Of a stretch of 64,000 nucleotides of DNA, positions 15,872 through 64,000 are shown one piece after another. Each line of letters opens with the position of its first letter. Position 1 is the first letter of the stretch. A program made the translations under genes and the position numbers. The notes under the pieces are model-generated. The model saw only the letters and a program-made list of their open reading frames with translations, made no database searches and had not been told where the DNA came from. Origin of the DNA: Candidatus Falkowbacteria bacterium (GTDB lineage: Bacteria; Patescibacteriota; Patescibacteriia; CAIXNZ01); NCBI GenBank assembly GCA_963774955.1, contig CAVZGV010000006.1:223224-287223 (forward strand). The letters run 5' to 3'.

Positions 15872-17212
15872 TTATTCCTTCACCGCCGGAACATCAGCAG
15901 GCTGAACTTCAGCCGGAGCAACCAGGAATTCTTCATTCGCCTTAATCACCTTATCAACCAAGGTCATAATGTCATCTGCTTGTTTGATCATATCAAAAGC
16001 CTGACTAATGGAATTACTGGCCAAAAACTCTCTGGCCTTGGCTAACAGTTTTTCAGCCGCTGCCGGTTTATCTTTTATTTCTTCAATAGTCGGTAAGACT
16101 TCTGCAGGTACAGTTTCCACCGGTTTTACTTCTGGTATAGGCTGTTCGATAACAATATTAGTATTGGTATTAAGATTAGTGTTGGTATTAGCTGGCTTAT
16201 TTTCTTCGGTGGTAACAGTATTAGTCTCAGTCTCAGATTCATTAGCAGCAGCAGCTTCAGCCGCAACAGTTTCCTTGGCCTCCAAAGCTTTAGCGGCGGA
16301 GGCCTCGGCAGCAGCCTTGTCAGCAGCTTCTTTGGCTGCCAAAGCTTTAGCGGCGGCAGCCTTATTGGTAATTACTTTTTCAATATTAGCCTTATCAGTT
16401 TCAATCTTGGTGACTAATTCATCGATCCTGCTGTTCATTTTTTGTTTCAAATCTTGCAGAGCAATTTCTTTATTACCGCCTTCAAATTCCTTGACAATCA
16501 CATCCAAAGCCTTGTCTGCAGTTGATTTGGACGCGGTAATGGCCTTGGCAGTTGCTGTGGCAGTTTCATCATTAGCAGCTACTTCAGGAGTTTTTGTCTG
16601 CTGATCTTTAAGTATATCCACATATTCTTTGGTTTTCTCATCTACTTTATTAGCCAGCTTGGCAGCAGTCTTGCTGTCCGCTTTTTCCAGTTTAGCCAGA
16701 CCGGTTTTGACATTATCCATGCTTTCCTGAAATTTTTTCAAAGAAACCTGAAGATTTTCATTTTTATCAGATTTATCGTTTTCGGTAAGCTTCTGCATTT
16801 CAGTCAGACGTCTGTCAGCAAAGACTATTTCCAAATCAACCTTTTTCTCATCGCTATTGGCCAAACCGACTTGCACTCTTTCAGTGGTCAATTTAAAACC
16901 GTATAAAAGATCACCCGGCAAACTATTTCTGGTGGCGCCTACTGTGGTAATATACGCGCCCAAACCAATGCCGATAATCAAAATCATGGCACCCAAAGGT
17001 TTATAGGCGGAAACCATAAATTGTTTAGCCAGCAAAGCATGCCAGCTGATTTTCTGATTTTTCAAATCAGAAGTCTGGGCTTTTATCTGGCTACACAAAA
17101 TCTCCCGATTGGTCTTTTTCCAGACCAAGTCAGGTTTAATTTCATGCTGTAAATTATTTAATTGTTTTAAGAGATCTTTTTTTTGCATGTATATATATGA
17201 AGATATAAACAT
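15872..17212 (-). CDS. Membrane-anchored coiled-coil protein, DUF5667-like, putative anti-sigma factor partner of the upstream ECF sigma
   Basis: Directly downstream (28-nt gap to a REP hairpin) of the sigma gene. One TM helix. LPGDLLYGFK motif as recalled for DUF5667. Ala/Lys/Glu-rich coiled-coil C-terminal half. Confidence 0.5.
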   Translation of the reverse strand: MFISSYIYMQKKDLLKQLNNLQHEIKPDLVWKKTNREILCSQIKAQTSDLKNQKISWHALLAKQFMVSAYKPLGAMILIIGIGLGAYITTVGATRNSLPGDLLYGFKLTTERVQVGLANSDEKKVDLEIVFADRRLTEMQKLTENDKSDKNENLQVSLKKFQESMDNVKTGLAKLEKADSKTAAKLANKVDEKTKEYVDILKDQQTKTPEVAANDETATATAKAITASKSTADKALDVIVKEFEGGNKEIALQDLKQKMNSRIDELVTKIETDKANIEKVITNKAAAAKALAAKEAADKAAAEASAAKALEAKETVAAEAAAANESETETNTVTTEENKPANTNTNLNTNTNIVIEQPIPEVKPVETVPAEVLPTIEEIKDKPAAAEKLLAKAREFLASNSISQAFDMIKQADDIMTLVDKVIKANEEFLVAPAEVQPADVPAVKE

Positions 17213-18010: not shown

Positions 18011-18102
18011 ATGCCCGTGCCTTGCGTTATTTAATATTCTGTTGTACACTATTTTTGTCCACACTATCGTAGACAAATGACAACATAGTGATTAGTGAAC
18101 GG

Positions 18103-18557
18103 GTAAAGATGCTGGTTTGGTGAATGGTGATATGTGCATGGTGTTTTTAAACCTTACACCTAACACTTAACACCATACTAACCTCTTTACCTATTCACTA
18201 TTCACCAGTGCATGGTGAATGGGTTAGGATTCTGGTTTAGTGAATGGTGATTTGTGTATAGTGTTTAAATCTTAACACTTAGCACTTAGCTCCTTACTAG
18301 CTTCTTTACCGATTCACTATTCACCAGTGCATGGTGAATGGGTTAGGATGCTGGTTTGGTATATGGTGATTTGTGTAAGGTGTTTTCACCTTATCACCTG
18401 TCACTTAACACCATACTAGCATCTTTACCTATTCACCAGTACATGGTGAATAGGTTTGGATGCTGGTTTTGTGCAAGGTGTATAGTGTATTGTGATCAAA
18501 CCTTAGCACCCAACACTTAACACCATACTAGCCTCTTTACCTTTTCACCTTTCACCT
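18103..18557. repeat. Tandem array of four ~115-120-bp imperfect direct repeats, each junction carrying the 19-bp palindrome TTCACCAGTGCATGGTGAA
   Basis: Palindrome copies at 18211-18229, 18320-18338 and 18432-18450 (variant ...AGTACATGG...). Units about 80% identical. Ends 12 bp before the ATG of the HTH gene 18570. Confidence 0.8.
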
Positions 18558-18869: not shown

Positions 18870-18877
18870 TACACGAA

Positions 18878-18913
18878 CGGAGCTAAGCTCCGAAGCGTCG
18901 GAGCTTAGCTCCG
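18878..18913. repeat. Hairpin element CGGAGCTAAGCTCCG-AAGCGT-CGGAGCTTAGCTCCG
   Basis: Second copy in the opposite internal arrangement at 40714-40749. Confidence 0.6.
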
Positions 18914-31856: not shown

Positions 31857-32243
31857 GGGGATGACCGGTTTCGATAGATTGATCTTTGAACAAAACGGCA
31901 AGCCGAGCTGCTACCATGCTCGTTAAACTGATAGCCACTTTATAAGTGCAAACACATTTTTAAGCAGGGTTAACGCAGCTTTTGCGTTCAACTTTGCTCC
32001 TGTTGCCGCGTAATTGCCGCAACCATTCGGATCTTTGACGCCTAATAGAAGACTCCGGGTGTCAAACTTATTAGGCTCTGTTAAGCAAGGCTCGCCTCTG
32101 CCAACTTAGCAAGAAAACTGGGGCAAGGTATAAGAATTTGGTTAGGATTACTATCTTATATTTTCAACCTAATCCTAAACAAGCTTGTAGATGTTTTGCC
32201 GAAGGCTTTCTAGACGCGGGTTCAATTCCCGCCATCTCCACCC
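31857..32243 (+). ncRNA. ssrA: tmRNA (ssrA)
   Basis: 5' GGGGATGACCGGTTTCGA... and 3' ...GGACGCGGGTTCAATTCCCGCCATCTCCACC form a tRNA-Ala-like acceptor/T-arm with a G3:U70 pair. Directly downstream of smpB. A candidate tag ORF ends ...FAPVAA-TAA at 32011-32013. Confidence 0.8.
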
Positions 32244-32245
32244 CT

Positions 32246-32422
32246 ACACTCCTGTCGTTACAAGGGGTGGTACTCCGTAGCTTTAGCGAAGGAGTACCCG
32301 ATCGCTACTATTTCTTAAACCCGCTTCAGAATATATTCGCTCCTCCGGAGCTTCGGGGTGTAAACACTCCTGTCGTTACAAGGGGTGGTACTCCGTAGCT
32401 TTAGCGAAGGAGTACCCGATCT
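32246..32422. repeat. Two identical 58-bp direct repeats (32246-32303 and 32365-32422), 3 bp after the tmRNA 3' end
   Basis: ACACTCCTGTCGTTACAAGGGGTGGTACTCCGTAGCTTTAGCGAAGGAGTACCCGATC occurs twice. Each contains hairpin GGTACTCC-GTAGCTTTAGCGAA-GGAGTACC. Confidence 0.85.
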
Positions 32423-32471
32423 TTACTACCGCGTCTTAGGGTGTATACACTTATAAAACCAAAACAAAAAA

Positions 32472-32738
32472 ATGGAATACATTGTTTACATTTTACAAAG
32501 TGAAAAAGACGGAAGTCATTATACAGGGCTCACTACTGACTTAAGGCTAAGAATCAAAAGTCATAATGAAGGAACTTCAATATATTCTTCGTCCAAAAAG
32601 CCTTTTATCCTTGTATGGCACTGCTCATTCCCTGATAAAAAATTAGCCGCTAAGTTTGAACATTATTTAAAAACAGGCTCCGGCATAGCCTTTCGCAACA
32701 AAAGATTAATAAATTACCATAAAAATATAAAACATTAA
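32472..32738 (+). CDS. GIY-YIG nuclease family small protein
   Basis: YIVYILQSEKDGSHYTGLTTDLRLRIKSHNEG matches the GIY...YIG motif with conserved R and N. Confidence 0.7.
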   Translation: MEYIVYILQSEKDGSHYTGLTTDLRLRIKSHNEGTSIYSSSKKPFILVWHCSFPDKKLAAKFEHYLKTGSGIAFRNKRLINYHKNIKH

Positions 32739-40668: not shown

Positions 40669-40790
40669 CGAAGCCCGAATGGTTTGGCATTGAAAAGGGA
40701 CGAGAGTCGTTAACGGAGCTTAGCTCCGAAGCGTCGGAGCTAAGCTCCGCACGTTCAGTCCTCTCCGCCCGTACGTTTAACAGTTAACGA

Positions 40791-43495: not shown

Positions 43496-44077
43496 ATGGT
43501 AAAAATTCTGGGCATGCGTCACGGACAAAAAGACGGTGATAAAATCACTGTCTTGGGAGCCAAGCAGGTCTTTGCCGCCGGACTAAATTTGTCCGAGCGG
43601 GGCTTTCGCTTTGAACGGATTATTCATTCCGGAGCCATCAGGACCAAACAATCTTTATACGTTATGGCAGCAGCTCTCAAACTCTTTAAGCTGCCACTGG
43701 AAGAAAACAAGAGTTTTTCGTATACAACGGTCATTAAATACCATAAAGATTATGCTGAGTTTAAAGCTGAAATGATGAAGATCAAAAAAGCTGGCGGTAC
43801 CCTGGATGTAGCCCTTGAACTTAGTAACTATGCCCGGGCAATCCGAGAGTTTATGACCAAGTCATTGCTTGATCTTGCTGAGGACATGGAAAGACGCAAA
43901 CAAATCTACGCGCTAGCAATCAGCCATTCGCCCTTGATTATCAGTGCCTCACCAGAACCATGGCAAACGCCATATGGACTTTTTGAATGCGACGGCATTC
44001 TCTACACCATTAAAAAAGGCCAGATCACGGACTTTGATATCATCAGAGCCCCTATACAAGGCAAGACTACCTGGTAA
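43496..44077 (+). CDS. Histidine phosphatase superfamily (phosphoglycerate-mutase-like/SixA-like) protein
   Basis: ILGMRHGQKDG contains the RHG catalytic motif at the expected N-terminal position. A later H in LAISHSPLI. RBS GGAGGG upstream. Confidence 0.45.
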   Translation: MVKILGMRHGQKDGDKITVLGAKQVFAAGLNLSERGFRFERIIHSGAIRTKQSLYVMAAALKLFKLPLEENKSFSYTTVIKYHKDYAEFKAEMMKIKKAGGTLDVALELSNYARAIREFMTKSLLDLAEDMERRKQIYALAISHSPLIISASPEPWQTPYGLFECDGILYTIKKGQITDFDIIRAPIQGKTTW

Positions 44078-44827: not shown

Positions 44828-44866
44828 ATATTTATTATCTCTAAGTATAACAAAAAATCGCCTCTA

Positions 44867-44915
44867 ATAAAAACAACACCCACTACATCGGATGTTGTTT
44901 TGTTCTGGTTCGGGG
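44867..44915. repeat. 48-bp direct repeat copy 1 (AAAAACAACACCCACTACATCGGATGTTGTTTTGTTCTGGTTCGGGGG)
   Basis: About 85% identical to 45801-45846, same orientation. Internal hairpin AACAACACCC...GGATGTTGTT. Confidence 0.75.
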
Positions 44916-44984
44916 GCTAGTTGACTATGTTGGAACTATTTGTTAAGGTAAAAAAAACAATTCCTATAGAAAAAGGAGGAAATA

Positions 44985-45359
44985 ATGAAAGTGTTGTTTT
45001 TTAAGGAGGATTATGACATTGATTTACATTATGGTCAAGGTCATACTGGTTATGGTGTTATTGTGGAGGGAAGTAATTTAGTAATATTTTTCAACAAAAG
45101 TACCTCCAAAATAACTGTTACTGAAAGCCCTGATTTTATTAAAAAAATTAATCCATTGTTTACACAGGAACAAATAAAAGAAGAAGAAGATCTGCTTGAG
45201 CAATCGATAACTCATACGAGAATAAAAATCACTAATACAGATGATGACACTTCAATAGAAGAATTGATTGCAGAAACAAAAAAATTCGCAGAACAAGAAA
45301 AAGCAATACTTGAAAAACTCCTATCACACTTTCCCGAAGAAGAGGAAAAGGAAGATTAG
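44985..45359 (+). CDS. Acidic hypothetical protein (124 aa)
   Basis: RBS AAGGAGGA. Glu-rich C-terminus. No family. Confidence 0.35.
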   Translation: MKVLFFKEDYDIDLHYGQGHTGYGVIVEGSNLVIFFNKSTSKITVTESPDFIKKINPLFTQEQIKEEEDLLEQSITHTRIKITNTDDDTSIEELIAETKKFAEQEKAILEKLLSHFPEEEEKED

Positions 45360-45407
45360 GGAAAAAAGTAATAAAGCTTGCCCCCTGAGGAAACTCTTGG
45401 GGCATTT

Positions 45408-45722
45408 TTATTTTACAATTGAAAATCTTAACATTAACTTTAATCCTTTGCGCCCCTTTGTTGTTTTAAGATACTTTTCGCGCCTTTTGGCGTCTCTTTT
45501 ATCTTTATAGGCTTCATAAAAAATTAAATCCCAAGGCAGGTAGGGTTTTGTTGCTGCCGATAGACCATTATTATGCTCATTTAATCGTCTATCAAGATGT
45601 ATAGTATAGCCGACGTAAAATTGAGTAGGTTTGATTTTACTTTGTAAATAATAAACGAAGTACATAAATTTATAAATTATTATATCAATATTATAGCAAG
45701 TGGCCGCGAGAAATGTAACCAC
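45408..45722 (-). CDS. GIY-YIG nuclease family small protein (likely true start at internal Met 45665, MYFVYYLQS)
   Basis: FYVGYTIHLDRRLNEHNNG matches the YIG plus R/N core. Second GIY-YIG gene in the window, again beside a stable RNA gene. Confidence 0.65.
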   Translation of the reverse strand: MVTFLAATCYNIDIIIYKFMYFVYYLQSKIKPTQFYVGYTIHLDRRLNEHNNGLSAATKPYLPWDLIFYEAYKDKRDAKRREKYLKTTKGRKGLKLMLRFSIVK

Positions 45723-45800
45723 CGAGAGCGGCCAGAACCAGAACTCGCTCTGCTTGTTCGGTACTGGCCAGCCCCGAACCGAACAAAATCGTCGGTAACT

Positions 45801-45846
45801 AAAACAACACCCATTTTATCGGGTGCTGTTTTGTTCTGGTTCGGGG
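45801..45846. repeat. 48-bp direct repeat copy 2, abutting the tRNA-Asp 3' end
   Basis: AAAACAACACCCATTTTATCGGGTGCTGTTTTGTTCTGGTTCGGGG. Ends 1 nt before the tRNA. Confidence 0.75.
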
Positions 45847-45847
45847 C

Positions 45848-45920
45848 GGAGCGGACGAGACTCGGACTCGCGACCTCTGCCGTGACAGGGCAGCGCTCTA
45901 ACCAACTGAGCTACCGCTCC
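45848..45920 (-). tRNA. tRNA-Asp (anticodon GTC)
   Basis: Reverse complement GGAGCGGTAGCTCAGTTGGTTAGAGCGCTGCCCTGTCACGGCAGAGGTCGCGAGTCCGAGTCTCGTCCGCTCC folds as a cloverleaf with anticodon loop CUGUCAC. CCA not encoded. Confidence 0.85.
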
Positions 45921-45954
45921 AATTTTGAAGTTCTTTTTACCAACTGCTTGCCCG

Positions 45955-45986
45955 CCATAGCTTTAGCGAAGGCGGGAGCTACCGCT
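45955..45986. repeat. Hairpin CCCGCC-ATAGCTTTAGCGAA-GGCGGG followed by a 13-nt duplicate of the tRNA-Asp 5' end (GAGCTACCGCTCC)
   Basis: Read directly. Loop nearly identical to the loops in the tmRNA-adjacent direct repeats. Confidence 0.7.
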
Positions 45987-46185
45987 CCAAAATAAAAATA
46001 AGGTTTTCAAGCCTTGTGAAGCTATTATAGCATTTAATTTTTACCTTGGCAAGAGTTAATCCCCTGAAATTTACCCCTTCTTCAATCGCCTAAAATAATC
46101 TTATATATCCGCATTTTGAGTGTCTGGACAAATTTTACAAAATAGCATAAGGTTGTAATGTATTATAATTAATAACCTTAAAAAA

Positions 46186-58093: not shown

Positions 58094-61000
58094 TTAATAT
58101 TTATTTAGAAGCGCCCGAGTGCGTGGCCCTACGGAACCGATCGAGTCAAGGTTATTGTCCGTCTGAAACTTTATTACCGCTACTTCTGTTGCGGAATCGT
58201 AATGACCATTAGACAGCATATCAGCTGGTAAATAATCCAAACATTGCAATAACTCCTGCAAATCTTTTACTTCAAGACTATTATTGCCAACCTTGAGCAA
58301 TGAAGTAAAGGTCAGGGTCTTATGGCAGGCTGCTACGGAGTCCCCTGTCGGCTGGGTTGCCGGCGCAGGAGTTTGGAAATTTGTTACCAGAGCCGCGCTT
58401 AAGGCAACTGCTGTCAAATTCAAATCATAATTAATACTGCTGGCGGCAATTATAACCCGAACCGGATTGAAGTCCGCAGTACTATTAATGGGGTCGCCGA
58501 CTTTATAATCCACGAAGAAAGCATCTGACAAATCATCGATCAAAACTTCCCAGCTAGACCCGTATACAGCCTGGGCAATTTCTTCATTGGCAATCCATCT
58601 CAAAGTCCCGTGCAAATCAACAGCATAAACCTTGGGATCAGTAAGCAATTTAATCAGCCTGACACCCGGTTTGGAAGTGACATTTTTACCCAGGGGAATC
58701 TGGGATAATTGCTCATTGGACATAAATTTAACCGCGCCAAAGTCATTATACCAACTATTATATATATTTTCATTCGGGAAGGTATGGCGCTTACCGTCAA
58801 TGCCATAATAATAGACGGTGTCTTCAGAATTCTTTAATAAATCACCTGGTCTTACAATTATTTGCTCACTGCTAGAAATTCTAATTGAAGAAACTATATT
58901 ACTGCCGATAAAATTATCAGCTAAATCGCCGTCATCTGCGGTAAAAACCTCTGAACGACCCTGATAATTTATATGCTGGAATAAAGTCGCAATCGCACCG
59001 CCAACGACTCTGATTGAAGAAGCAAAATCTTGACCCAAAGTATTATTTCTTAAGTCCGGGTCATCAGCCGTAAAAGATTCTGATCTGCCCTGATAATCAG
59101 TGAGCTCATATAGAATTACCATCGGGTTTATACCGAAAGTAAGATCACCTGACTGAACCGGTGGTGTCGGTGGTTCTGTTGGTGTTACTGGCGGTTCTAC
59201 TGGCGGTTCAACAGGAGGAGGAAAGATTGCCGTATAAAATTCTATAGAATCATTTATTATTGGGGAATTCGTGCCATCACTGCTCTTGTAAATCACATAA
59301 ACTGTTTTAATGCCATCACCTGATTCCAGAGTCCAATTCATGGTAGTCGGCGTGGTAAATGGCTGCCAAATGGCCCCGATAAAATTAGGATCATTGCTGA
59401 CAACTACTTGGGCTGCATTTTGCGATTGCAAGTTTAAAGTAACGCCGGTTGAATTAGTAGTGGTTGCGCCATTATTTATTGAGACAGAGTAAGCAGACGG
59501 GTAAATAAAGGTATGACCTCCGCCGCCGACAGGTGCGGTATAAGTAATTGAATTATCGGTTGAGGTTGAGACATTATTGGTATTTCCAGCCAGGTCTGAA
59601 ACATTACTTGCTCCAATATCAGCGATGACAGTTCCGTCAGCGGTAACTACGACTAAAATTTCAAACGTAGTACCGTCATTTGGTGCAACTTCGGTAACCG
59701 TAACCAAACCTGTTGTTGCAGTACCTGTAATAGCCACATCGACGCTGGTAAATGTTGTAATATCAATCGACTCATCAAATACAACCGTAAACCTTACCGG
59801 TGAACTGCTTGCTGGATCTGGCTGGCCGGCCTTTTGCTCAACAGTTACATTAGGGGCAATACTATCGATGGTGTAATTCAAGGTAAATGAAGACGGAGAT
59901 TTATTTCCGGTTGTATCAATGCAGCGCAAATAAACTGTTTTGGATCCTTCACCTGCCAGATTCAAAGTACAGCTGGTAGCGCTACCGCAGCTATTAGCCA
60001 TTAAATCATAAGTTGTATCAACAATATCCCATTTACAATTTACCGTATCACCGCTTGAAGTAAAGACAATGGCTGTTGAATTGTCATTAGTGGTGTCATA
60101 ATATGGCGCGGTTATATCCCCGGCTACGCTGGTGATACTGCCAACTGACGGTGGTAAAGAATCAGTAGTAATTGTGTTATCCGTTGAAGTTGAAACATTA
60201 TTAGTATTTCCGGCCAAGTCAGAAACTCCGCCAGCTGGAATATCTGCGATCACTGTTCCATCCATAGTAACTATAACCGATACATTAAAGGTTGTACCAT
60301 CATTTGGCGCTACTTCGGTTATTGTTACCAAACCGGTTGTGGCTGTGCCGCTTATGGATACATCAACACTGGTAAATGTGCCTGTATTTATCGGCTCGTC
60401 AAATACTGCTGTAAATTCTACTGGCGAAACATTAGTTGGATCTGTCTGTCCTAATTTCTGATCTATGGTAACTGATGGTGAGACTGTATCTTTAGTAAAA
60501 CTGCGGCTGTCAGAGCCGATATTCCCAGCGGCATCAGTATCCCTGACATTCAATGTAAAGGCTACCTGGCCCAGGCCGGCAAAATCTGTAAGCGTTGAAA
60601 ATGCATCGCCGCTGGCACAGCTTTCCCAGCTGCCGCCGTCAATATTGCATTCCTGTGTGCCTGGTTCTGAACTTGTAAAGGTAAATGTGGCTGAGCCGTT
60701 AACTGTACTGGTTGCTGACGGTGCTGTGATAGCCACGGTTGAAGCCACTGTATCAATTACAATCGCATGGACTGCCGCAAAGGTCCCTACTGCCGGCAAA
60801 GTATTATCCGCATCATTTAAACCCGCATCTTTTATTGTTGCGCCATTCAACGATAAATCACTGGTATTGGAGTAATCCAAATCAACGCTGTTTTCCCCGC
60901 CTCCGACTGTGTATCTAAACGTTAATGTATTTGAACCAGTACCGCTATTGTATGTTGCTGTTCCTCCGGAATTTAAAGCCAAGCTCGGCGTACCGCCAGC

Positions 61001-63991
61001 CACATCTACAACGGCTGAATAAGTTACAGTTATATCTATTACTTCGCTGATTGTATAGCTGCCGTCGCCCTTAGCAGTATTTACGGCAGTTATGCTCGGC
61101 GAAGATGTATTAATAACAATAGCATGCGCTGTCGCAAAGGTCCCTACTGCCAGCAAAGTATTATCCGCATTATTTCCTGCCGCATCCTGAATAGTACCTC
61201 CGTTTAAGGTTAAGTCGCCGGTAGTGGAATAGTCCAAGTCTGCGCTGCTATCACCGCCTCCGACTGTATATCTGAACGTCAGAGCATTTGAACCTGTGCC
61301 GCTATTGTATGCTGCTGTTCCTCCTGAATTTAAAGCCAAACTCGGTGTACCGCCGCCAGTATTCACTGTAATCACTTCATCATAAGTCACTGTAATATCT
61401 ATTATTACTCCTGTACTATATGTGCCGTCTGATTTAGCGGTTGTAACTGTTGTGACTGTTGGCGCGGTGGCATCAATTGTGTAATTCAATGTATATGAAG
61501 TTACTGCTTTGTTACCGGCTGTATCTACGCATCTTAAGTAAACTGTCTTAGCTGCTTCACCTGATTCTGTTAATGTACAGTTGGTTGTGCTGGTACAAGT
61601 ATTTGCCATTAAATCATAGGTTGTATCTGAAGTATCCCATTTACAGGTTGCTGCATCGGCATCTGTTGTATAGACAACCAAAGTTGAACTATCATCTGTT
61701 AAATCATAATATGGCGCAGATGTATCTCCGGCTACGCTGGTGATGGCGGTAATTGATGGCGGAGTTGTATCTAAGATAAAATTACCCATACTGGTCCAGG
61801 AAGAAGTTAAGACCCCATCATCATTTTGCGCGCACCAATAATAGGTAGCATCACTGCCGATTGATGAACCGGGTGTCCAGGTTGTACTTTCGTTATTAGT
61901 TGCTGTTGCCGCAGATGTGCCAGAATCAACTATATTACTATTATTATTACAGTCAACTAACGACGTAGATGAAATCCGATAATTCGTTGTGCCGGTATCT
62001 CCGCTGTCAGGATCTGAATAATTGGCTGATAATGTCGGAGTATCATCGTTTGTTGTTGAGCCATTTGAGGGTGATACTAATGTCGGTGCATTCGGTGCCG
62101 TATTACCGGCAGCCGTGGTAATAGCTATTTCTGTGGCATTAGCTTTTTGGCCGGCAAGATCATAAGCCCAGATATTAAAAACATACTGCGTGCTGGCTGA
62201 AAGGCTGCCGACTGTTGTGCTTGTTGTACTATTGTAATCAATAAATCCCAAATCAGAATCAGTGTGCGGTGTATCAGCTTCTGTTACCCCGGACGCTGCC
62301 TGTTTGTAAAATATTTTGTAAGTATCGAAGTTTGTTTCTGTTGTGGCTGCTCCGAAATTTAAGGTTATTGAGTTTATTGTTGTTCCCCCATTAGTTAAAT
62401 TGCCGGGTGCTGTCGGCGCGGTGGCATCAATTGTATAGTCTAACTGCCATGAACTGGTGGCTTTGTTACCGGCTGTATCTACGCATCTTAAGTAAACTGT
62501 CTTAGCAGCTTCACCTGATTCAGTTAATGTACAGTTGGTTGTGCTGGTACAGGTATTTGCCATTAAATCATAGGTTGTATCTGAAGTATCCCATTTACAG
62601 GTTGCTGCGTCTGCATCTGTTGTATAGACAACCAAAGTTGAACTGTCATCTGTTAAATCATAATATGGCGCAGATGTATCTCCGGCTACGCTGGTTATTG
62701 CTGTCACGCTCGGCGCGGTGGCATCAATAGTGTAATCCAATTGATATGAAGTTAAGGCTTTGTTACCGGCTGTATCTACGCATCTTAAGTAAACTGTCTT
62801 AGCAGCTTCGCCTGATTCAGTTAATGTACAGTTGGTTGTGCTGGTACAGGTATTTGCCATTAAATCATAGGTTGTATCTGAAGTATCCCATTTACAGGTT
62901 GCTGCATCGGCATCTGTTGTATAGACAACCAAAGTTGAACTATCATCTGTTAAATCATAATATGGCGCAGATGTATCTCCGGCTACGCTGGTGATGGCGG
63001 TAATTGATGGCGGAGTTGTATCTAAAATAAAATTACCCATACTGGTCCAGGAAGAAGTTAAGACCCCATCATCATTTTGCGCGCACCAATAATAGGTAGC
63101 ATCACTGCCGATTGATGAACCGGGTGTCCAGGTTGTACTTTCGTTATTAGTTGCTGTTGCCGCAGATGTGCCAGAATCAACTATATTACTATTATTATTA
63201 CAGTCAACTAACGACGTAGATGAAATCCGATAATTCGTTGTGCCGGTATCTCCGCTGTCAGGATCTGAATAATTGGCTGATAATGTCGGAGTATCATCGT
63301 TTGTTGTTGAGCCATTTGAGGGTGATACTAATGTCGGTGCATTCGGTGCCGTATTACCGGCAGCCGTGGTAATAGCTATTTCTGTGGCATTAGCTTTTTG
63401 GCCGGCAAGATCATAAGCCCAGATATTAAAAACATACTGCGTGCTGGCTGAAAGGCTGCCGACTGTTGTGCTTGTTGTACTATTGTAATCAATAAATCCC
63501 AAATCAGAATCAGTGTGCGGTGTATCAGCTTCTGTTACCCCGGACGCTGCCTGTTTGTAAAATATTTTGTAAGTATCGAAGTTTGTTTCTGTTGTGGCTG
63601 CTCCGAAATTTAAGGTTATTGAGTTTATTGTTGTTCCCCCATTAGTTAAATTGCCGGGTGCTGTCGGCGCGGTGGCATCAATTGTATAGTCTAACTGCCA
63701 TGAACTGGTGGCTTTGTTACCGGCTGTATCTACGCATCTTAAGTAAACTGTCTTAGCAGCTTCGCCTGATTCTGTTAATGTACAGTTGGTTGTGCTGGTA
63801 CAGGTATTTGCCATTAAATCATAGGTTGTATCTGAAGTATCCCATTTACAGGTTGCTGCATCGGCATCTGTTGTATAGACAACCAAGGTTGAACTGTCAT
63901 CTGTTAAATCATAATATGGCGCAGATGTATCTCCGGCTACGCTGGTTATTGCTGTCACGCTCGGCGCGGTGGCATCAATTGTGTAATCCAA
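58094..63991 (-). CDS. Giant cell-surface protein (more than 1965 aa, N-terminus beyond window): Ig-like/FN3 repeats, beta/gamma-crystallin pair, shared domain, C-terminal PG_binding_1 peptidoglycan-binding domain
   Basis: FN3-like (TYKIFYKQAA...STQYVFNIWAYDLAGQ). Pro-rich linker PPVEPPVEPPVTPTEPPTPP. Crystallin-type YELTDYQGRSESFTADDPDL...SSIRV twice. Shared domain YYYGIDGKRHTFPNE...LIKLLTDPKVYAVDLHGTLRWI. C-terminus LQELLQCLDYL...GPRTRALLNKY. Uninterrupted 5.9-kb ORF. Confidence 0.8.
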   Translation of the reverse strand: MDYTIDATAPSVTAITSVAGDTSAPYYDLTDDSSTLVVYTTDADAATCKWDTSDTTYDLMANTCTSTTNCTLTESGEAAKTVYLRCVDTAGNKATSSWQLDYTIDATAPTAPGNLTNGGTTINSITLNFGAATTETNFDTYKIFYKQAASGVTEADTPHTDSDLGFIDYNSTTSTTVGSLSASTQYVFNIWAYDLAGQKANATEIAITTAAGNTAPNAPTLVSPSNGSTTNDDTPTLSANYSDPDSGDTGTTNYRISSTSLVDCNNNSNIVDSGTSAATATNNESTTWTPGSSIGSDATYYWCAQNDDGVLTSSWTSMGNFILDTTPPSITAITSVAGDTSAPYYDLTDDSSTLVVYTTDADAATCKWDTSDTTYDLMANTCTSTTNCTLTESGEAAKTVYLRCVDTAGNKALTSYQLDYTIDATAPSVTAITSVAGDTSAPYYDLTDDSSTLVVYTTDADAATCKWDTSDTTYDLMANTCTSTTNCTLTESGEAAKTVYLRCVDTAGNKATSSWQLDYTIDATAPTAPGNLTNGGTTINSITLNFGAATTETNFDTYKIFYKQAASGVTEADTPHTDSDLGFIDYNSTTSTTVGSLSASTQYVFNIWAYDLAGQKANATEIAITTAAGNTAPNAPTLVSPSNGSTTNDDTPTLSANYSDPDSGDTGTTNYRISSTSLVDCNNNSNIVDSGTSAATATNNESTTWTPGSSIGSDATYYWCAQNDDGVLTSSWTSMGNFILDTTPPSITAITSVAGDTSAPYYDLTDDSSTLVVYTTDADAATCKWDTSDTTYDLMANTCTSTTNCTLTESGEAAKTVYLRCVDTAGNKAVTSYTLNYTIDATAPTVTTVTTAKSDGTYSTGVIIDITVTYDEVITVNTGGGTPSLALNSGGTAAYNSGTGSNALTFRYTVGGGDSSADLDYSTTGDLTLNGGTIQDAAGNNADNTLLAVGTFATAHAIVINTSSPSITAVNTAKGDGSYTISEVIDITVTYSAVVDVAGGTPSLALNSGGTATYNSGTGSNTLTFRYTVGGGENSVDLDYSNTSDLSLNGATIKDAGLNDADNTLPAVGTFAAVHAIVIDTVASTVAITAPSATSTVNGSATFTFTSSEPGTQECNIDGGSWESCASGDAFSTLTDFAGLGQVAFTLNVRDTDAAGNIGSDSRSFTKDTVSPSVTIDQKLGQTDPTNVSPVEFTAVFDEPINTGTFTSVDVSISGTATTGLVTITEVAPNDGTTFNVSVIVTMDGTVIADIPAGGVSDLAGNTNNVSTSTDNTITTDSLPPSVGSITSVAGDITAPYYDTTNDNSTAIVFTSSGDTVNCKWDIVDTTYDLMANSCGSATSCTLNLAGEGSKTVYLRCIDTTGNKSPSSFTLNYTIDSIAPNVTVEQKAGQPDPASSSPVRFTVVFDESIDITTFTSVDVAITGTATTGLVTVTEVAPNDGTTFEILVVVTADGTVIADIGASNVSDLAGNTNNVSTSTDNSITYTAPVGGGGHTFIYPSAYSVSINNGATTTNSTGVTLNLQSQNAAQVVVSNDPNFIGAIWQPFTTPTTMNWTLESGDGIKTVYVIYKSSDGTNSPIINDSIEFYTAIFPPPVEPPVEPPVTPTEPPTPPVQSGDLTFGINPMVILYELTDYQGRSESFTADDPDLRNNTLGQDFASSIRVVGGAIATLFQHINYQGRSEVFTADDGDLADNFIGSNIVSSIRISSSEQIIVRPGDLLKNSEDTVYYYGIDGKRHTFPNENIYNSWYNDFGAVKFMSNEQLSQIPLGKNVTSKPGVRLIKLLTDPKVYAVDLHGTLRWIANEEIAQAVYGSSWEVLIDDLSDAFFVDYKVGDPINSTADFNPVRVIIAASSINYDLNLTAVALSAALVTNFQTPAPATQPTGDSVAACHKTLTFTSLLKVGNNSLEVKDLQELLQCLDYLPADMLSNGHYDSATEVAVIKFQTDNNLDSIGSVGPRTRALLNKY
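61470..63991. repeat. Near-identical ~1.25-kb tandem DNA repeats inside the giant gene (at least 2 copies, continuing past window end)
   Basis: For example tcggcgcggtggcatcaat at 62710 and 63961 (period 1251 bp). Blocks 61780-62740 and 63040-63991 are almost base-identical. Protein repeats DATAPSVTAITSVAGDTS... five times. Confidence 0.85.
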
Positions 63992-64000
63992 TTGATATGA

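Follow-up and report, generated by a model that had tools for sequence, protein, structure and literature searches.

A small Slx1-like GIY-YIG nuclease gene joined by two palindromes to the 3' end of tRNA-Asp in a Candidatus Falkowbacteria contig: a composite segment with a possibly selfish core

Stand-alone Slx1-like GIY-YIG proteins (UPF0213), to which Escherichia coli YhbQ belongs, are very common in bacteria and have been without an assigned function for about 20 years. They constitute a minimal GIY-YIG form of unknown function (PMC1564403), and a link to tRNA or tmRNA 3' ends or to palindromes is not described for the family in the literature searched. A GIY-YIG nuclease gene is encountered among tRNA genes in phage T4, where SegB is encoded in a tRNA gene cluster (PMC2330249), and the SegB-type enzymes, which belong to the I-TevI/UvrC branch, have DNA-binding domains. 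Moreover, rRNA genes of CPR bacteria contain GIY-YIG-encoding insertions that are neither group I nor group II introns (PMC11270868). REPIN/RAYT systems combine imperfect palindromes, arranged as inverted doublets, with a single nuclease gene; their palindromes are specific to a genome or subfamily, are homogenised within the genome and also occur as solo copies, and the pairing is long-lived, vertical and under purifying selection. Their enzyme is an HUH (Y1) tyrosine transposase, and their copies are dispersed in hundreds. Finally, the 3' ends of tRNA and tmRNA genes are classic integration sites, and tyrosine-integrase islands insert at such 3' ends or in the anticodon loop, keep the RNA gene intact and are bounded by direct repeats of RNA-gene sequence.

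The locus described here lies in a 64-kb stretch of DNA (the window), on the minus strand of which a small GIY-YIG gene follows tRNA-Asp in the order tRNA 3' end, palindrome H1, palindrome H2, short copy of the tRNA end, promoter, and GIY-YIG gene. A tiny GIY-YIG gene located just after a tRNA or tmRNA gene and joined to it by two near-perfect palindromes is a widespread and apparently undescribed arrangement; it is not described in the literature on GIY-YIG proteins in connection with tRNA, tmRNA, CPR, Parcubacteria, UPF0213 or YhbQ, of which subscription journals were incompletely covered. The components of the unit are as follows.

45847 to 45920, minus strand: tRNA-Asp(GTC) (Rfam RF00005, 68 bits; 45844 to 45921 according to ARAGORN)
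45833 to 45847, minus strand: 5' arm of H1, G-CCCC-GAACC-A-GAAC, beginning at the tRNA discriminator base
45771 to 45784, minus strand: 3' arm of H1, GTTCGGTTCGGGGC, of which the final C pairs with G73
45730 to 45769, minus strand: palindrome H2, GGCCAGTACCGAAC-loop-GTTCTGGTTCTGGCC, approximately the reverse complement of H1
45726 to 45731, minus strand: CCGCTC, which repeats the 3' strand of the tRNA-Asp acceptor, immediately after H2, of which it shares the last 2 nt
45690 to 45719, minus strand: promoter-like site of the GIY-YIG gene (GTTACA, 18-nt spacer, TG-TATAAT; 10 of 12 positions matching)
45408 to 45665, minus strand: gene for an 85-aa GIY-YIG nuclease of stand-alone Slx1/UPF0213 type

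The ATG at 45665 is supported as the start codon by homologues, and TGCTATAAT of the promoter-like site also occurs in three related loci (L002, L003 and L086). The product scored 62.6 bits against PF01541 (cut-off 22.6; E=4e-17), and a tmRNA-linked copy elsewhere in the window scored 55.8 bits; an HMM scan of all six frames detected exactly two GIY-YIG ORFs in the window, which lie beside its only two tRNA-like genes. Among 42 homologues Y5, G19, R27, H31 and E63 were invariant and Y17 was conserved in at least 90%, and these residues are predicted to be catalytic. The best PDB matches were the UPF0213 proteins BH0048 (1zg2, E=1.5e-12) and EF2693 (1ywl, E=2.4e-9), which likewise comprise no more than a minimal catalytic domain (about 85-100 aa) that contains the GIY, YIG, Arg, His and Glu elements, followed by SLX1 (E=7e-6), whereas I-TevI, of the branch to which SegB belongs, was matched only at E=7e-3. 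To judge from these matches, the protein is Slx1/UPF0213-like, nearer to that branch than to I-TevI/UvrC, and has no extra domain; a sequence-specific DNA-binding domain was not found in its 85 aa, which comprise the catalytic domain only. NCBIfam, PADLOC and PHROGs gave no matches for four local proteins, and tblastn with the GIY-YIG protein against 50,697 phage records gave none either.

The palindromic module of the window was matched by a covariance model at 45724-45847 (63.4 bits, E=1.4e-13), and the DNA fold of H1 had a z-score of -7.3. Across the aligned modules, the two-hairpin structure had 98.9% of its cells paired and compensatory double changes in 10 of 27 pairs, and was reached by none of 500 shuffles. 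Summed over the stems, the pairs comprised 573 Watson-Crick, 7 G-T and 1 A-C. The resemblance of H2 to the reverse complement of H1 is thus supported by covariation, as in the inverted doublets of REPIN/RAYT. A nested single long hairpin (H1 5' arm with H2 3' arm, and H1 3' arm with H2 5' arm), which is possible because the four arms are alike, was weaker, with 90.5% of cells paired and 4 compensatory pairs, and was rejected. In 395 kb, matches of the covariance model were located only beside GIY-YIG genes or tRNA fragments, and neither further matches nor dispersed H1/H2 copies were present elsewhere in the 64-kb window. No Rfam 15 covariance model matched the modules, at E up to 5 for the window and up to 0.5 for 18 related loci; Rfam recognized only tRNA, tmRNA and one SRP RNA in the window and related loci, and tRNA and tmRNA only at the gathering threshold.

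The module is anchored to the end of the RNA gene with great regularity. H1 pairs with the discriminator and the CCA/CCC in all 24 modules, N73 pairs with the H1-closing base in each of them (6 A-T and 18 G-C), and the base following H2 equals N73 in 20 of the 21 end-anchored modules. In the window the bases after G73 (45847) are CCC instead of CCA; in L002, where this CCC is missing, H1 pairs with the acceptor strand. The acceptor copies after H2 match the relative's own tRNA in each case (CCACTCCG in L002, GCGCCC in L005 and CCGCCC in L007), and tRNAs without a GIY-YIG gene downstream are mostly without a module.

These patterns bear on the possibility that the nuclease is a host housekeeping enzyme at stable-RNA genes, acting in the processing of 3' trailers or the turnover of precursors for tRNA and tmRNA, or, like Slx1 at rDNA, clearing stalled forks, R-loops or hairpins from highly transcribed RNA genes. 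In that case the palindromes would serve as signals for RNA processing or regulation, for instance as a minihelix plus NCCA at which the co-transcribed mRNA is released, and the repeats would be by-products of local duplication. The sequence of H2 followed by N73-CC(A/C) does resemble an acceptor minihelix, and a TrmH fusion of Slx1-like proteins has been read as a hint of RNA metabolism (PMC1564403). Moreover, the compact units (L005-L008) have neither a promoter nor a Shine-Dalgarno sequence between H2 and the ATG, and must therefore be co-transcribed with the tRNA; since they leave no room for a promoter, their hairpins are certainly transcribed, and the hairpins may have a role at the RNA level. 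However, 97% of the stem pairs are Watson-Crick and G-U is nearly absent, an unusual composition for a conserved RNA, and the base after H2 tracks the discriminator of the upstream tRNA, which mimicry of RNase P or RNase Z substrates would not need. Besides, most tRNAs of the same loci have no module. On balance we regard a housekeeping role of this kind as unlikely, and its further predictions are taken up below.

The GIY-YIG unit forms part of a larger segment bounded by direct repeats, with the following features.

44854 to 44915, unstranded: direct repeat copy 1, without H1 3' arm or H2 downstream
45785 to 45846, unstranded: direct repeat copy 2, comprising the H1 5' arm, the terminator hairpin and a further 16 nt
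45801 to 45832, unstranded: terminator-like hairpin (AAAACAACACCC/GGGTGCTGTTTT) in the H1 loop
44985 to 45359, plus strand: acidic ORF, 124 aa, with a GGAGG ribosome-binding site, lineage-restricted
45380 to 45402, unstranded: terminator-like hairpin, bidirectional, where the GIY-YIG and acidic ORFs converge, conserved in L085

An earlier note on this DNA had described the segment as a single cassette of about 930 bp, carrying an acidic 124-aa ORF and a GIY-YIG ORF between 48-bp repeats (44867-44915 and 45801-45846, about 85% identical) of which the second ended 1 nt from the tRNA-Asp 3' end. Both ORFs are indeed bracketed by a repeat pair in the same orientation, but the repeats extend over 62 nt (44854-44915 and 45785-45846, 84% identity), and copy 2, which ends at 45846, directly abuts the discriminator base. 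A search of the 64 kb with the 46-nt core pattern gave exactly two matches, as compared to none in 100 shuffles. The repeat begins after the discriminator and does not appear to be a tRNA-derived att site; it consists of the H1 5' arm and a terminator hairpin seated in the H1 loop, where compact relatives have only AAA. The bases preceding copy 1, read from the sequence, match the tRNA end at 9 of 17 positions, and copy 1 is located 26 nt upstream of the start of a 231-aa ORF. Beyond the 62 nt, no significant homology was detected between the surroundings of copy 1 and the GIY-YIG unit. A remnant of a second unit after copy 1 (H1 3' arm, H2 and GIY-YIG 3' end, as in L002) was considered and discarded, as nothing exceeded the level of shuffled sequence.

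The hairpin in the repeat is a predicted intrinsic terminator on both strands, with the stem at 45808-45825 followed by TTTTGTT on the plus strand and the identical 12-bp stem followed by TTTT on the minus strand. This hairpin with its T-runs in either direction, together with the occurrence of other hairpin families in the window, could suggest that the repeat is nothing more than an intrinsic terminator that was duplicated, or a REP-like element of a generic kind, and that the adjacency of the GIY-YIG gene is coincidental. This explanation appears hardly credible. The earlier note had considered that its cassette would be refuted by a ubiquitous terminator-like repeat occurring irrespective of GIY-YIG genes; just two copies are present in the 64 kb, and every occurrence of the motif in the 395 kb of related loci was next to a GIY-YIG gene or a tRNA fragment. 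Outside its hairpin, the repeat (CCCCGAACCAGAAC) equals the GIY-YIG-linked H1 arm, which other genomes have downstream of tRNAs for Asp, Trp, Leu and Ser, the layout of a repeated terminator around a GIY-YIG gene returns in L002, L091 and L092, and the adjacency of tRNA and GIY-YIG genes is far beyond chance (P ~1e-31; see below).

The acidic ORF has no Pfam, NCBIfam, PADLOC or PHROG match and only 2 matches among 5.8 billion proteins, and its dN/dS of 0.23 derives from 10 substitutions; one record of it, P0060, is 100% identical. It is missing from the closest GIY-YIG relatives (L086, L002 and L003), and in L085, which like other short metagenomic contigs is possibly chimeric, it stands beside a GIY-YIG gene of a different subfamily. 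This distribution contradicts the notion of one cassette, and indicates that the acidic ORF is a passenger outside the GIY-YIG unit.

The leader of tRNA-Asp contains two further features.

46024 to 46052, minus strand: promoter-like site of tRNA-Asp (TTGCCA, 17-nt spacer, TG-TATAAT; 11 of 12 positions matching), conserved in L001 and L002
45936 to 45990, minus strand: 22-nt copy of the tRNA 5' part (45976-45990 plus 45939-45946), split by a family-B hairpin

A duplicate of the tRNA 5' end beside a family-B hairpin had previously been placed at 45974-45986 with a length of 13 nt and assigned to the cassette. The duplicate is real, but it is an exact copy of 15 nt (45908-45922 equals 45976-45990), positioned 2 nt further, and continues across the hairpin with another 8 nt, ACCAACTG (45939-45946, matching 45901-45908). 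The interrupting hairpin measures 30 nt (stem 45951-45956 with 45971-45976, loop ATAGCTTTAGCGAA). Neither the tRNA copy nor the hairpin is present in the corresponding leaders of L001 and L002, and instead of belonging to a cassette they represent a separate hairpin insertion in the tRNA leader. The family-B hairpin has 3 copies; family-B-like matches at 16285 and 16342 fall within an ORF of 446 aa and were discounted as coding. Other hairpin families are present in the window as well.

The second GIY-YIG gene that had been noticed beside a stable RNA and a hairpin in the window was found again, next to tmRNA.

31857 to 32738, plus strand: tmRNA-GIY-YIG sister locus (tmRNA 31857-32243; GIY-YIG gene 32472-32738)

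Downstream of the tmRNA lie two repeat units of 65 nt (32246-32310 and 32364-32428), and in each of them an H1 beginning at the terminal ACC of the tmRNA is accompanied by a family-B hairpin; the hairpins at the tmRNA and tRNA-Asp loci have the loop GTAGCTTTAGCGAA in common. The synteny of tmRNA and GIY-YIG genes recurs in L088, L089 and L090, and a SmpB-tmRNA-GIY-YIG-IF3 linkage is conserved among related genomes between which synonymous divergence is saturated. Bacteroidota homologues are likewise located downstream of tmRNA, with repeats of the RNA end plus terminator flanking the gene. Conservation of this synteny in both CPR and Bacteroidota favours a host enzyme.

In a census of 80 metagenomic GIY-YIG loci, 26 had a co-oriented tRNA, representing 12 tRNA identities, that ended 65-210 nt upstream of the GIY-YIG start, where about 1% was expected (P ~1e-31). 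The same adjacency is present in L002 and L086 (both tRNA-Asp) and in L004 (tRNA-Ser). The units are minimal throughout (~0.35-0.5 kb), and several are surrounded by scars that resemble those of insertion. Repeats of the RNA end plus terminator enclose the gene in L002 (124 nt, three copies), L091 (70 nt, 91% identical) and L092; the window also has an RNA-gene-adjacent repeat with terminator around the gene, in which clear tRNA sequence is absent. Copies of the tRNA 3' end of 13-17 nt lie downstream of the gene in L034, L050, L059 and L078, and direct repeats that include the 3' part of the RNA gene are found in L002, L034, L050, L078 and L091, and in L081 the unit lies between 35-nt repeats of the 5' half of tRNA-Gln. 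Modules are located within tRNA-Gln fragments in L050, and in L068 and L071 the truncated 5' end of a GIY-YIG gene is joined to a 3' fragment of a tRNA. The 477-bp unit of L087 is either circular or tandem, with a terminal overlap equal to the assembler's k of 141, and L006 contains two tandem units of which the modules are ~97% and the proteins ~65% identical. Among loci of uncertain orthology, tRNA-Met abuts tRNA-Asp in L005 and a unit is situated between these two in L006. Flanking repeats occur in only ~7-8 of the 34 stable-RNA-linked loci, and are absent from the closest relative, L086. As to an empty tRNA-Asp site, which the earlier note had proposed as a check, none was recovered: the sole genome match, L001 (a Buchananbacteria contig), ends inside the tRNA, and an exact look-up with the SPFH protein of the window gave no match.

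Direct repeats that contain the RNA 3' end, as in L002, L034 and L091, at a classic type of integration site, are what would be expected of an eroded integrase-mediated island, of which the repeats would be attL and attR, the integrase would have been lost, and the GIY-YIG and acidic ORFs would be leftover cargo. The units do share with tyrosine-integrase islands their position at the 3' end or anticodon loop of a tRNA or tmRNA gene that is kept intact and the direct repeats of RNA-gene sequence (L002, L034, L081 and L091). They differ in being only ~0.4 kb, always minimal, with repeats that range from 4 nt to 124 nt and a variable content, and in more than 35 units and their surroundings neither an integrase nor a recombinase was found. 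In the window, moreover, the repeat comprises trailer and terminator only: it begins after the tRNA, is 84% identical over 62 nt and has the terminator inside. Att sites do not feature a conserved palindromic module that covaries with N73, and an eroded island therefore seems very unlikely.

The linkage of tRNA-Asp and the GIY-YIG gene is common to the window, L086 and L002, between which synonymous sites are saturated, and is thus too old to be explained by recent integration. The GIY-YIG protein is under strong purifying selection (dN/dS 0.04-0.075 at dS >1.2). As far as these comparisons allow, the unit is long-lived and largely vertically inherited rather than a recent invader. The small mobile or selfish cassette that had been proposed survives in part, as a recurrent tRNA-3'-end unit with insertion-like signatures, and not as one cassette or a recent integration. 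The strong purifying selection would equally suit a host enzyme. Evidence against a selfish unit includes the linkage itself, as conservation at saturated synonymous divergence is expected of a useful host gene as well, and the protein, in which 85 aa of catalytic domain leave no evident DNA-binding module to direct cleavage to a specific site. The failure to recover an empty site, the scarcity of flanking repeats and the transcribed hairpins of the compact units count against it too. Against the host enzyme stand the many paralogues per genome, each at a different tRNA, and the tRNA fragments, target-like duplications and tandem or circular units that surround the genes.

We give an even chance to the reading that the segment is a composite, the core of which is a tRNA-3'-anchored GIY-YIG unit that behaves at the DNA level as a REPIN/RAYT-like or homing-like selfish unit. 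Its insertion-like signatures are the direct repeats, the tRNA fragments, the tandem or circular copies and the many tRNA hosts, with a similar unit at tmRNA. Under this selfish-unit reading, the 62-nt repeat would be a second copy of the left end of the unit (H1 5' arm plus terminator), most likely generated by tandem duplication, or by Campbell-type re-integration of a circularised unit, and the acidic ORF an unrelated passenger trapped between the copies. The palindromes would act as cis sites in DNA, able to form a hairpin or cruciform that the structure-specific nuclease nicks at the stem base beside position 73, after which host repair, replication or recombination could lead to duplications, changes in copy number and, from time to time, transfer to the end of another tRNA, with the RNA gene left intact at every step.

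With REPIN/RAYT the unit shares the palindrome doublet next to a single nuclease gene, homogenisation within a genome (L006), solo copies (L013, L068, L029 and hairpin B at 45951-45976) and the long-lived vertical pairing under purifying selection; in contrast, its only gene encodes a GIY-YIG hydrolase, and its copies are anchored at tRNA and tmRNA ends. The tRNA fragments that accompany the units would be understandable if spread were of the homing type, through cleavage, recombinational repair and co-conversion. Unlike SegB-type genes, the units are cellular, old and under purifying selection, have a double palindrome, and lack phage homologues. The insertions in CPR rRNA genes agree in host group, protein superfamily and association with stable RNA, but lie inside the rRNA genes, and tRNA, a palindromic module and anchoring at position 73 are absent from that report (PMC11270868).

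More tentatively, and with clearly less than even confidence, we propose an as yet unrecognised class of minimal elements in CPR bacteria and Bacteroidota, in which a Slx1-like GIY-YIG nuclease would be combined with its own double palindrome on position 73/CCA of tRNA and tmRNA genes, and sometimes on anticodon loops. Such elements would be kept by hairpin or cruciform cleavage and host repair, as a GIY-YIG analogue of REPIN/RAYT, with the ends of stable-RNA genes as a safe harbour. If true, this would amount to a nuclease-only, recombinase-free occupation of tRNA gene ends, and would account for part of the small genes annotated as 'GIY-YIG nuclease family protein' and of the tRNA fragments in CPR and Bacteroidota annotations. 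For annotation, the module and the surrounding tRNA fragments matter for the calling of tRNA 3' ends and pseudo-tRNAs in these genomes. For the UPF0213 family, the arrangement provides a concrete candidate substrate, the palindrome, as DNA or RNA, and a biological context, that of a selfish or symbiotic element at stable-RNA genes.

The tRNA-Asp and tmRNA loci of the window comprise the following features.

Features of the two loci (window positions; the last seven lines are in order downstream of tRNA-Asp, on the tRNA strand)
31857-32243, + strand: tmRNA, followed by two 65-nt units within 32246-32428 and then the second GIY-YIG gene
44854-44915 and 45785-45846, same orientation: direct repeat, two copies of 62 nt, 84% identical
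44985-45359, + strand: acidic ORF of 124 aa, between the repeat copies
45408-45665, - strand: GIY-YIG ORF of 85 aa (PF01541, E=4e-17; start supported by homologues), between the repeat copies
45844-45921 (ARAGORN) or 45847-45920 (Rfam, 68 bits), - strand: tRNA-Asp(GTC), discriminator G73 at 45847
45908-45922 and 45976-45990: 15-nt exact duplicate of the tRNA 5' end
First item 3' of the tRNA: 5' arm of palindrome H1, G73 then CCCC-GAACC-A-GAAC
Between the H1 arms: 48-nt insert with a terminator-like hairpin
After the insert: H1 3' arm, GTTCGGTTCGGGGC
Between the H1 3' arm and H2: a single T
After this T: second palindrome H2, GGCCAGTACCGAAC, loop, GTTCTGGTTCTGGCC
After H2: GCTC, which the two final bases of the arm before it extend to CCGCTC
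Downstream of CCGCTC: promoter-like site TG-TATAAT, then the GIY-YIG ATG

The 46-nt core of the direct repeat has exactly two matches in the 64 kb and none in 100 shuffles, and the second copy ends (45846) against the discriminator base G73 (45847). An earlier note had rightly recognized these repeats, albeit as 48 bp instead of the 62 nt (84% identical) found here; the repeat is not tRNA sequence but is composed of the 5' arm of H1, the terminator hairpin, and another 16 nt. CCGCTC repeats the tRNA acceptor 3' strand, and the region downstream of tRNA-Asp folds as single-stranded DNA at -36.5 kcal/mol (z=-7.3). A six-frame profile scan detected exactly two GIY-YIG ORFs in the window, both immediately downstream of, and co-oriented with, tRNA-Asp or tmRNA, its only two tRNA-like genes; the other such gene beside a stable RNA and hairpin to which the same note alluded is the one at tmRNA, with its family-B hairpins. 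Other repeats in the window include a 38-nt palindromic element, AACGGAGCTAAGCTCCGAAGCGTCGGAGCTTAGCTCCG, present in two 95% identical copies (18876-18913 and 40712-40770), which belongs to a separate hairpin family and has no GIY-YIG gene nearby; a tandem array repeating every ~119 nt (18087-18556); and several families of large, diverged ~300-nt repeats in the last 4.5 kb (59500-64000), which are probably repetitive coding sequence.

The order of tRNA, two palindromes, and a short copy of the tRNA end was found in all tRNA-linked loci compared. In seven compact H1/H2 modules, 98.9% of the cells were paired in the two-hairpin structure and 10 of the 27 pairs displayed changes on both sides, with 0 of 500 shuffles performing as well; sliding the pairing partners abolished the pairing. 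A nested single hairpin was also considered and was weaker than two separate hairpins. The covariance model made from the modules, searched across 395 kb, recovered the window module (45724-45847, - strand; 63 bits, E=1.4e-13) with no second match elsewhere in the window, and its remaining matches were all beside GIY-YIG genes or tRNA fragments. The H1 stem starts at the tRNA discriminator base (N73), which is complementary to the H1-closing base in 24/24 sense-strand modules (6 A-T, 18 G-C), and the next pairs are formed by CCA or CCC, except in locus L002, which is without CCC and where H1 instead pairs with the acceptor strand. Of 21 end-anchored modules, 20 have a base identical to N73 directly 3' of H2. 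With 573 Watson-Crick, 7 G-T, 1 A-C, and 10 other pairs, the stems approach perfect palindromes and resemble DNA repeats more than typical conserved RNA; no Rfam family matched the modules, and the non-coding palindrome arms are better conserved than synonymous sites. Most control tRNAs, taken from these loci but with no GIY-YIG gene after them, are without a module, and the exceptions resemble solo modules (L013 160-233, L068 2817-2909, L029 1-59).

Close homologues of the protein (80-89% identity) occur in other Parcubacteria. The closest locus (L086, 89%) has a tRNA-Asp with an identical acceptor end, H1 with the terminator in its loop, H2, promoter, and GIY-YIG gene, followed by an ordinary terminator and a methyltransferase-like gene, without acidic ORF or right-hand repeat. 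L002 (85%) contains three copies of a 124-nt repeat that begins within the tRNA acceptor end. The gene is flanked by the second and third copies, and the third is followed by a 29-nt piece of the gene's 3' end, apparently left over from a second tandem unit. L003 (80%) has H2 5' of the gene and an H1 arm with terminator 3' of it. The ends of contig L087 (1-618; 84%) overlap by exactly 141 nt, the assembler's k, which indicates either a circle of 477 bp or tandem copies of such a unit, composed of GIY-YIG, H1 arm, terminator, H1 arm, H2, and promoter. In L004 (73%), H1 and H2 lie as in the window, immediately 3' of tRNA-Ser.

A metagenome census with a profile from 42 homologues yielded 80 loci, in 26 of which a co-oriented tRNA (Asp, Met, Trp, Leu, Ala, Arg, Glu, Gly, Ser, Asn, Gln, or Tyr) ends 65-210 nt upstream of the GIY-YIG gene, while ~1% is expected from the density of other tRNAs in these loci (P ~1e-31); several others (L011, L032, L044, L079, L081) open with a tRNA fragment or with a tRNA 3' end that the contig edge truncates. 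Approximately 45 of the 80 loci (L012, L016, L018-L025, L027, L028, L030, L031, L033, L035, L036, and others) have another conserved leader, ~CC(A/G)GGTAGTGAAAATTCGACTGCGATT-ATG, 10-35 nt upstream of the GIY-YIG start, which is typical of most loci without a tRNA. This leader is conserved at the nucleotide level across different reading frames, has TAG-TGA or TAG-TAG, in some cases starts at the stop codon that ends a dockerin-like ORF lying upstream (L033, L057, L066), forms long hairpins with inverted copies in L039, L051, and L058, and has no Rfam match; it may represent another type of junction element in this GIY-YIG family. In L029 (780-878), an SRP RNA gene lies directly 3' of a tRNA-Ser-linked GIY-YIG gene, as another stable-RNA neighbour.

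At the window's tmRNA, each 65-nt unit consists of an H1 starting at the tmRNA terminal ACC and a family-B hairpin with loop GTAGCTTTAGCGAA. Orthologues that are 81-89% identical (L088, L089, L090) retain the order SmpB, tmRNA, GIY-YIG, IF3, L35, L20, and the number of hairpin units differs among these close relatives: one in L088 (2363-2500), one in L089, two in the window, and ~3 in L090 (2181-2500). Bacteroidota homologues (~50% identical) lie just 3' of tmRNA in Winogradskyella (L091 1974-2900) and four Bacteroidia MAGs (L092-L095), in the order AlaDh, tmRNA, GIY-YIG, with copies of the tmRNA trailer and terminator on either side of the gene and a conserved hairpin, CTTCGGTGGACTC(C)GTCCAC, upstream of it; L092 and L093 differ by a 223-nt duplication.

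Traces of rearrangement and spread were seen at several loci. L006 carries two units in a single operon, the first behind tRNA-Met and the second behind tRNA-Asp, each consisting of a module and a GIY-YIG gene. Their modules are ~97% identical versus ~65% for the proteins, and each module bears its own tRNA's discriminator (ACCC and GCCC). In L005, tRNA-Met abuts tRNA-Asp and the only unit follows the latter. Two loci are associated with anticodon-loop positions of tRNA-Gln instead of its 3' end: L081 (72-533), with a 35-nt repeat of the tRNA 5' half, up to the anticodon, on both sides of module and gene, and L050 (2213-2893), with modules within tRNA-Gln pseudogene fragments on either side of an intact tRNA-Gln and its GIY-YIG gene. 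L068 and L071 each contain a fusion of the first ~12 codons of a GIY-YIG ORF with a 3' piece of a tRNA, after which come a further module and a complete gene. Of 34 stable-RNA-linked loci, 7-8 have the RNA 3' end or trailer copied again 3' of the gene; L034, for instance, has an exact 13-nt tRNA-Gly end there, and L091 repeats the tmRNA end with its terminator over 70 nt at 91% identity.

In the main rival explanation, the nuclease would serve the host at stable-RNA genes and the hairpins would act as signals in RNA; this reading is in line with the long vertical persistence and with the necessary co-transcription of compact units, but gives a poor account of the scars, the paralogy, and the Watson-Crick purity of the stems.

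Upstream of tRNA-Asp in the window, the tRNA 5'-end duplicate that had been described as 13 nt is indeed present, measures 15 nt, and resumes for 8 nt across a hairpin, so that the leader (45936-45990) contains 22 nt copied from the tRNA 5' part (TTGGAGCGGTAGCT...CAGTTGGT) and split by a 30-nt hairpin. This hairpin (45951-45976) is the window's third of family B, with a loop identical to those at tmRNA, and has no counterpart in the leaders of L001 and L002; the element looks like a solo hairpin inserted into a duplicated tRNA fragment. An orthologous ORF of 193 aa (window 43496-44077, L002 4784-5365; 56% identity), with an N-terminal RHG motif and no Pfam match, directly precedes the tRNA-Asp promoter in L002. 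Relative to this ORF the window's tRNA-Asp-to-GIY-YIG block is inverted, and a 231-aa ORF is additional, which points to rearrangement local to the unit.

The acidic ORF had no family match, and among 5.8 billion proteins matched only itself and P0061, encoded on L085, a 1.2-kb metagenomic contig that is ~97% identical to the window over about 45044-45413 only; 10 of 294 coding positions differ, five synonymously and five not. Past the common terminator, L085 has a different, tmRNA-type GIY-YIG subfamily with its own module, including a family-B-like hairpin as H2, and a tRNA present only as a 3' fragment from a different tRNA. GIY-YIG units thus appear to turn over beside the acidic ORF, although L085 could be chimeric. 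The absence of this ORF from L086, L002, and L003 argues that it is a passenger outside the unit, and against the single cassette including it that had been proposed.

The catalytic residues of the GIY-YIG protein are conserved in the 42-homologue profile. Among solved structures it matches best the UPF0213 proteins BH0048 (E=1.5e-12) and EF2693, followed by eukaryotic SLX1, with a marginal match to I-TevI (E=7e-3), which by sequence places it in the stand-alone Slx1-like branch, of unknown function (PMC1564403). Among five orthologues dN/dS was 0.04-0.075 with synonymous sites saturated; the gene is, judged from its sequence, old and functional.

Together, the loci show one recurring unit that is anchored with precision to the ends of stable-RNA genes and has covarying near-perfect palindromes; the duplications flanking it vary, tRNA fragments and tandem or circular forms occur, and its copy number differs between loci. 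We infer that the palindromes function as DNA, and that the Slx1-like nuclease would cleave the hairpin or cruciform at the stem base beside position 73, after which host repair or recombination would generate the duplications and occasional moves of the unit; the 62-nt repeat in the window is probably what remains of the left end of a second unit, tandem or re-integrated. GIY-YIG homing endonucleases are well known, as are tRNA and tmRNA genes as integration sites. Also known are T4 SegB within a tRNA cluster (PMC2330249) and GIY-YIG insertions in CPR rRNA genes (PMC11270868). Our literature search found no account of a stand-alone GIY-YIG gene arranged in this way with palindromes at a tRNA end. 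The arrangement supplies a specific candidate substrate and context for an orphan, very common protein family.
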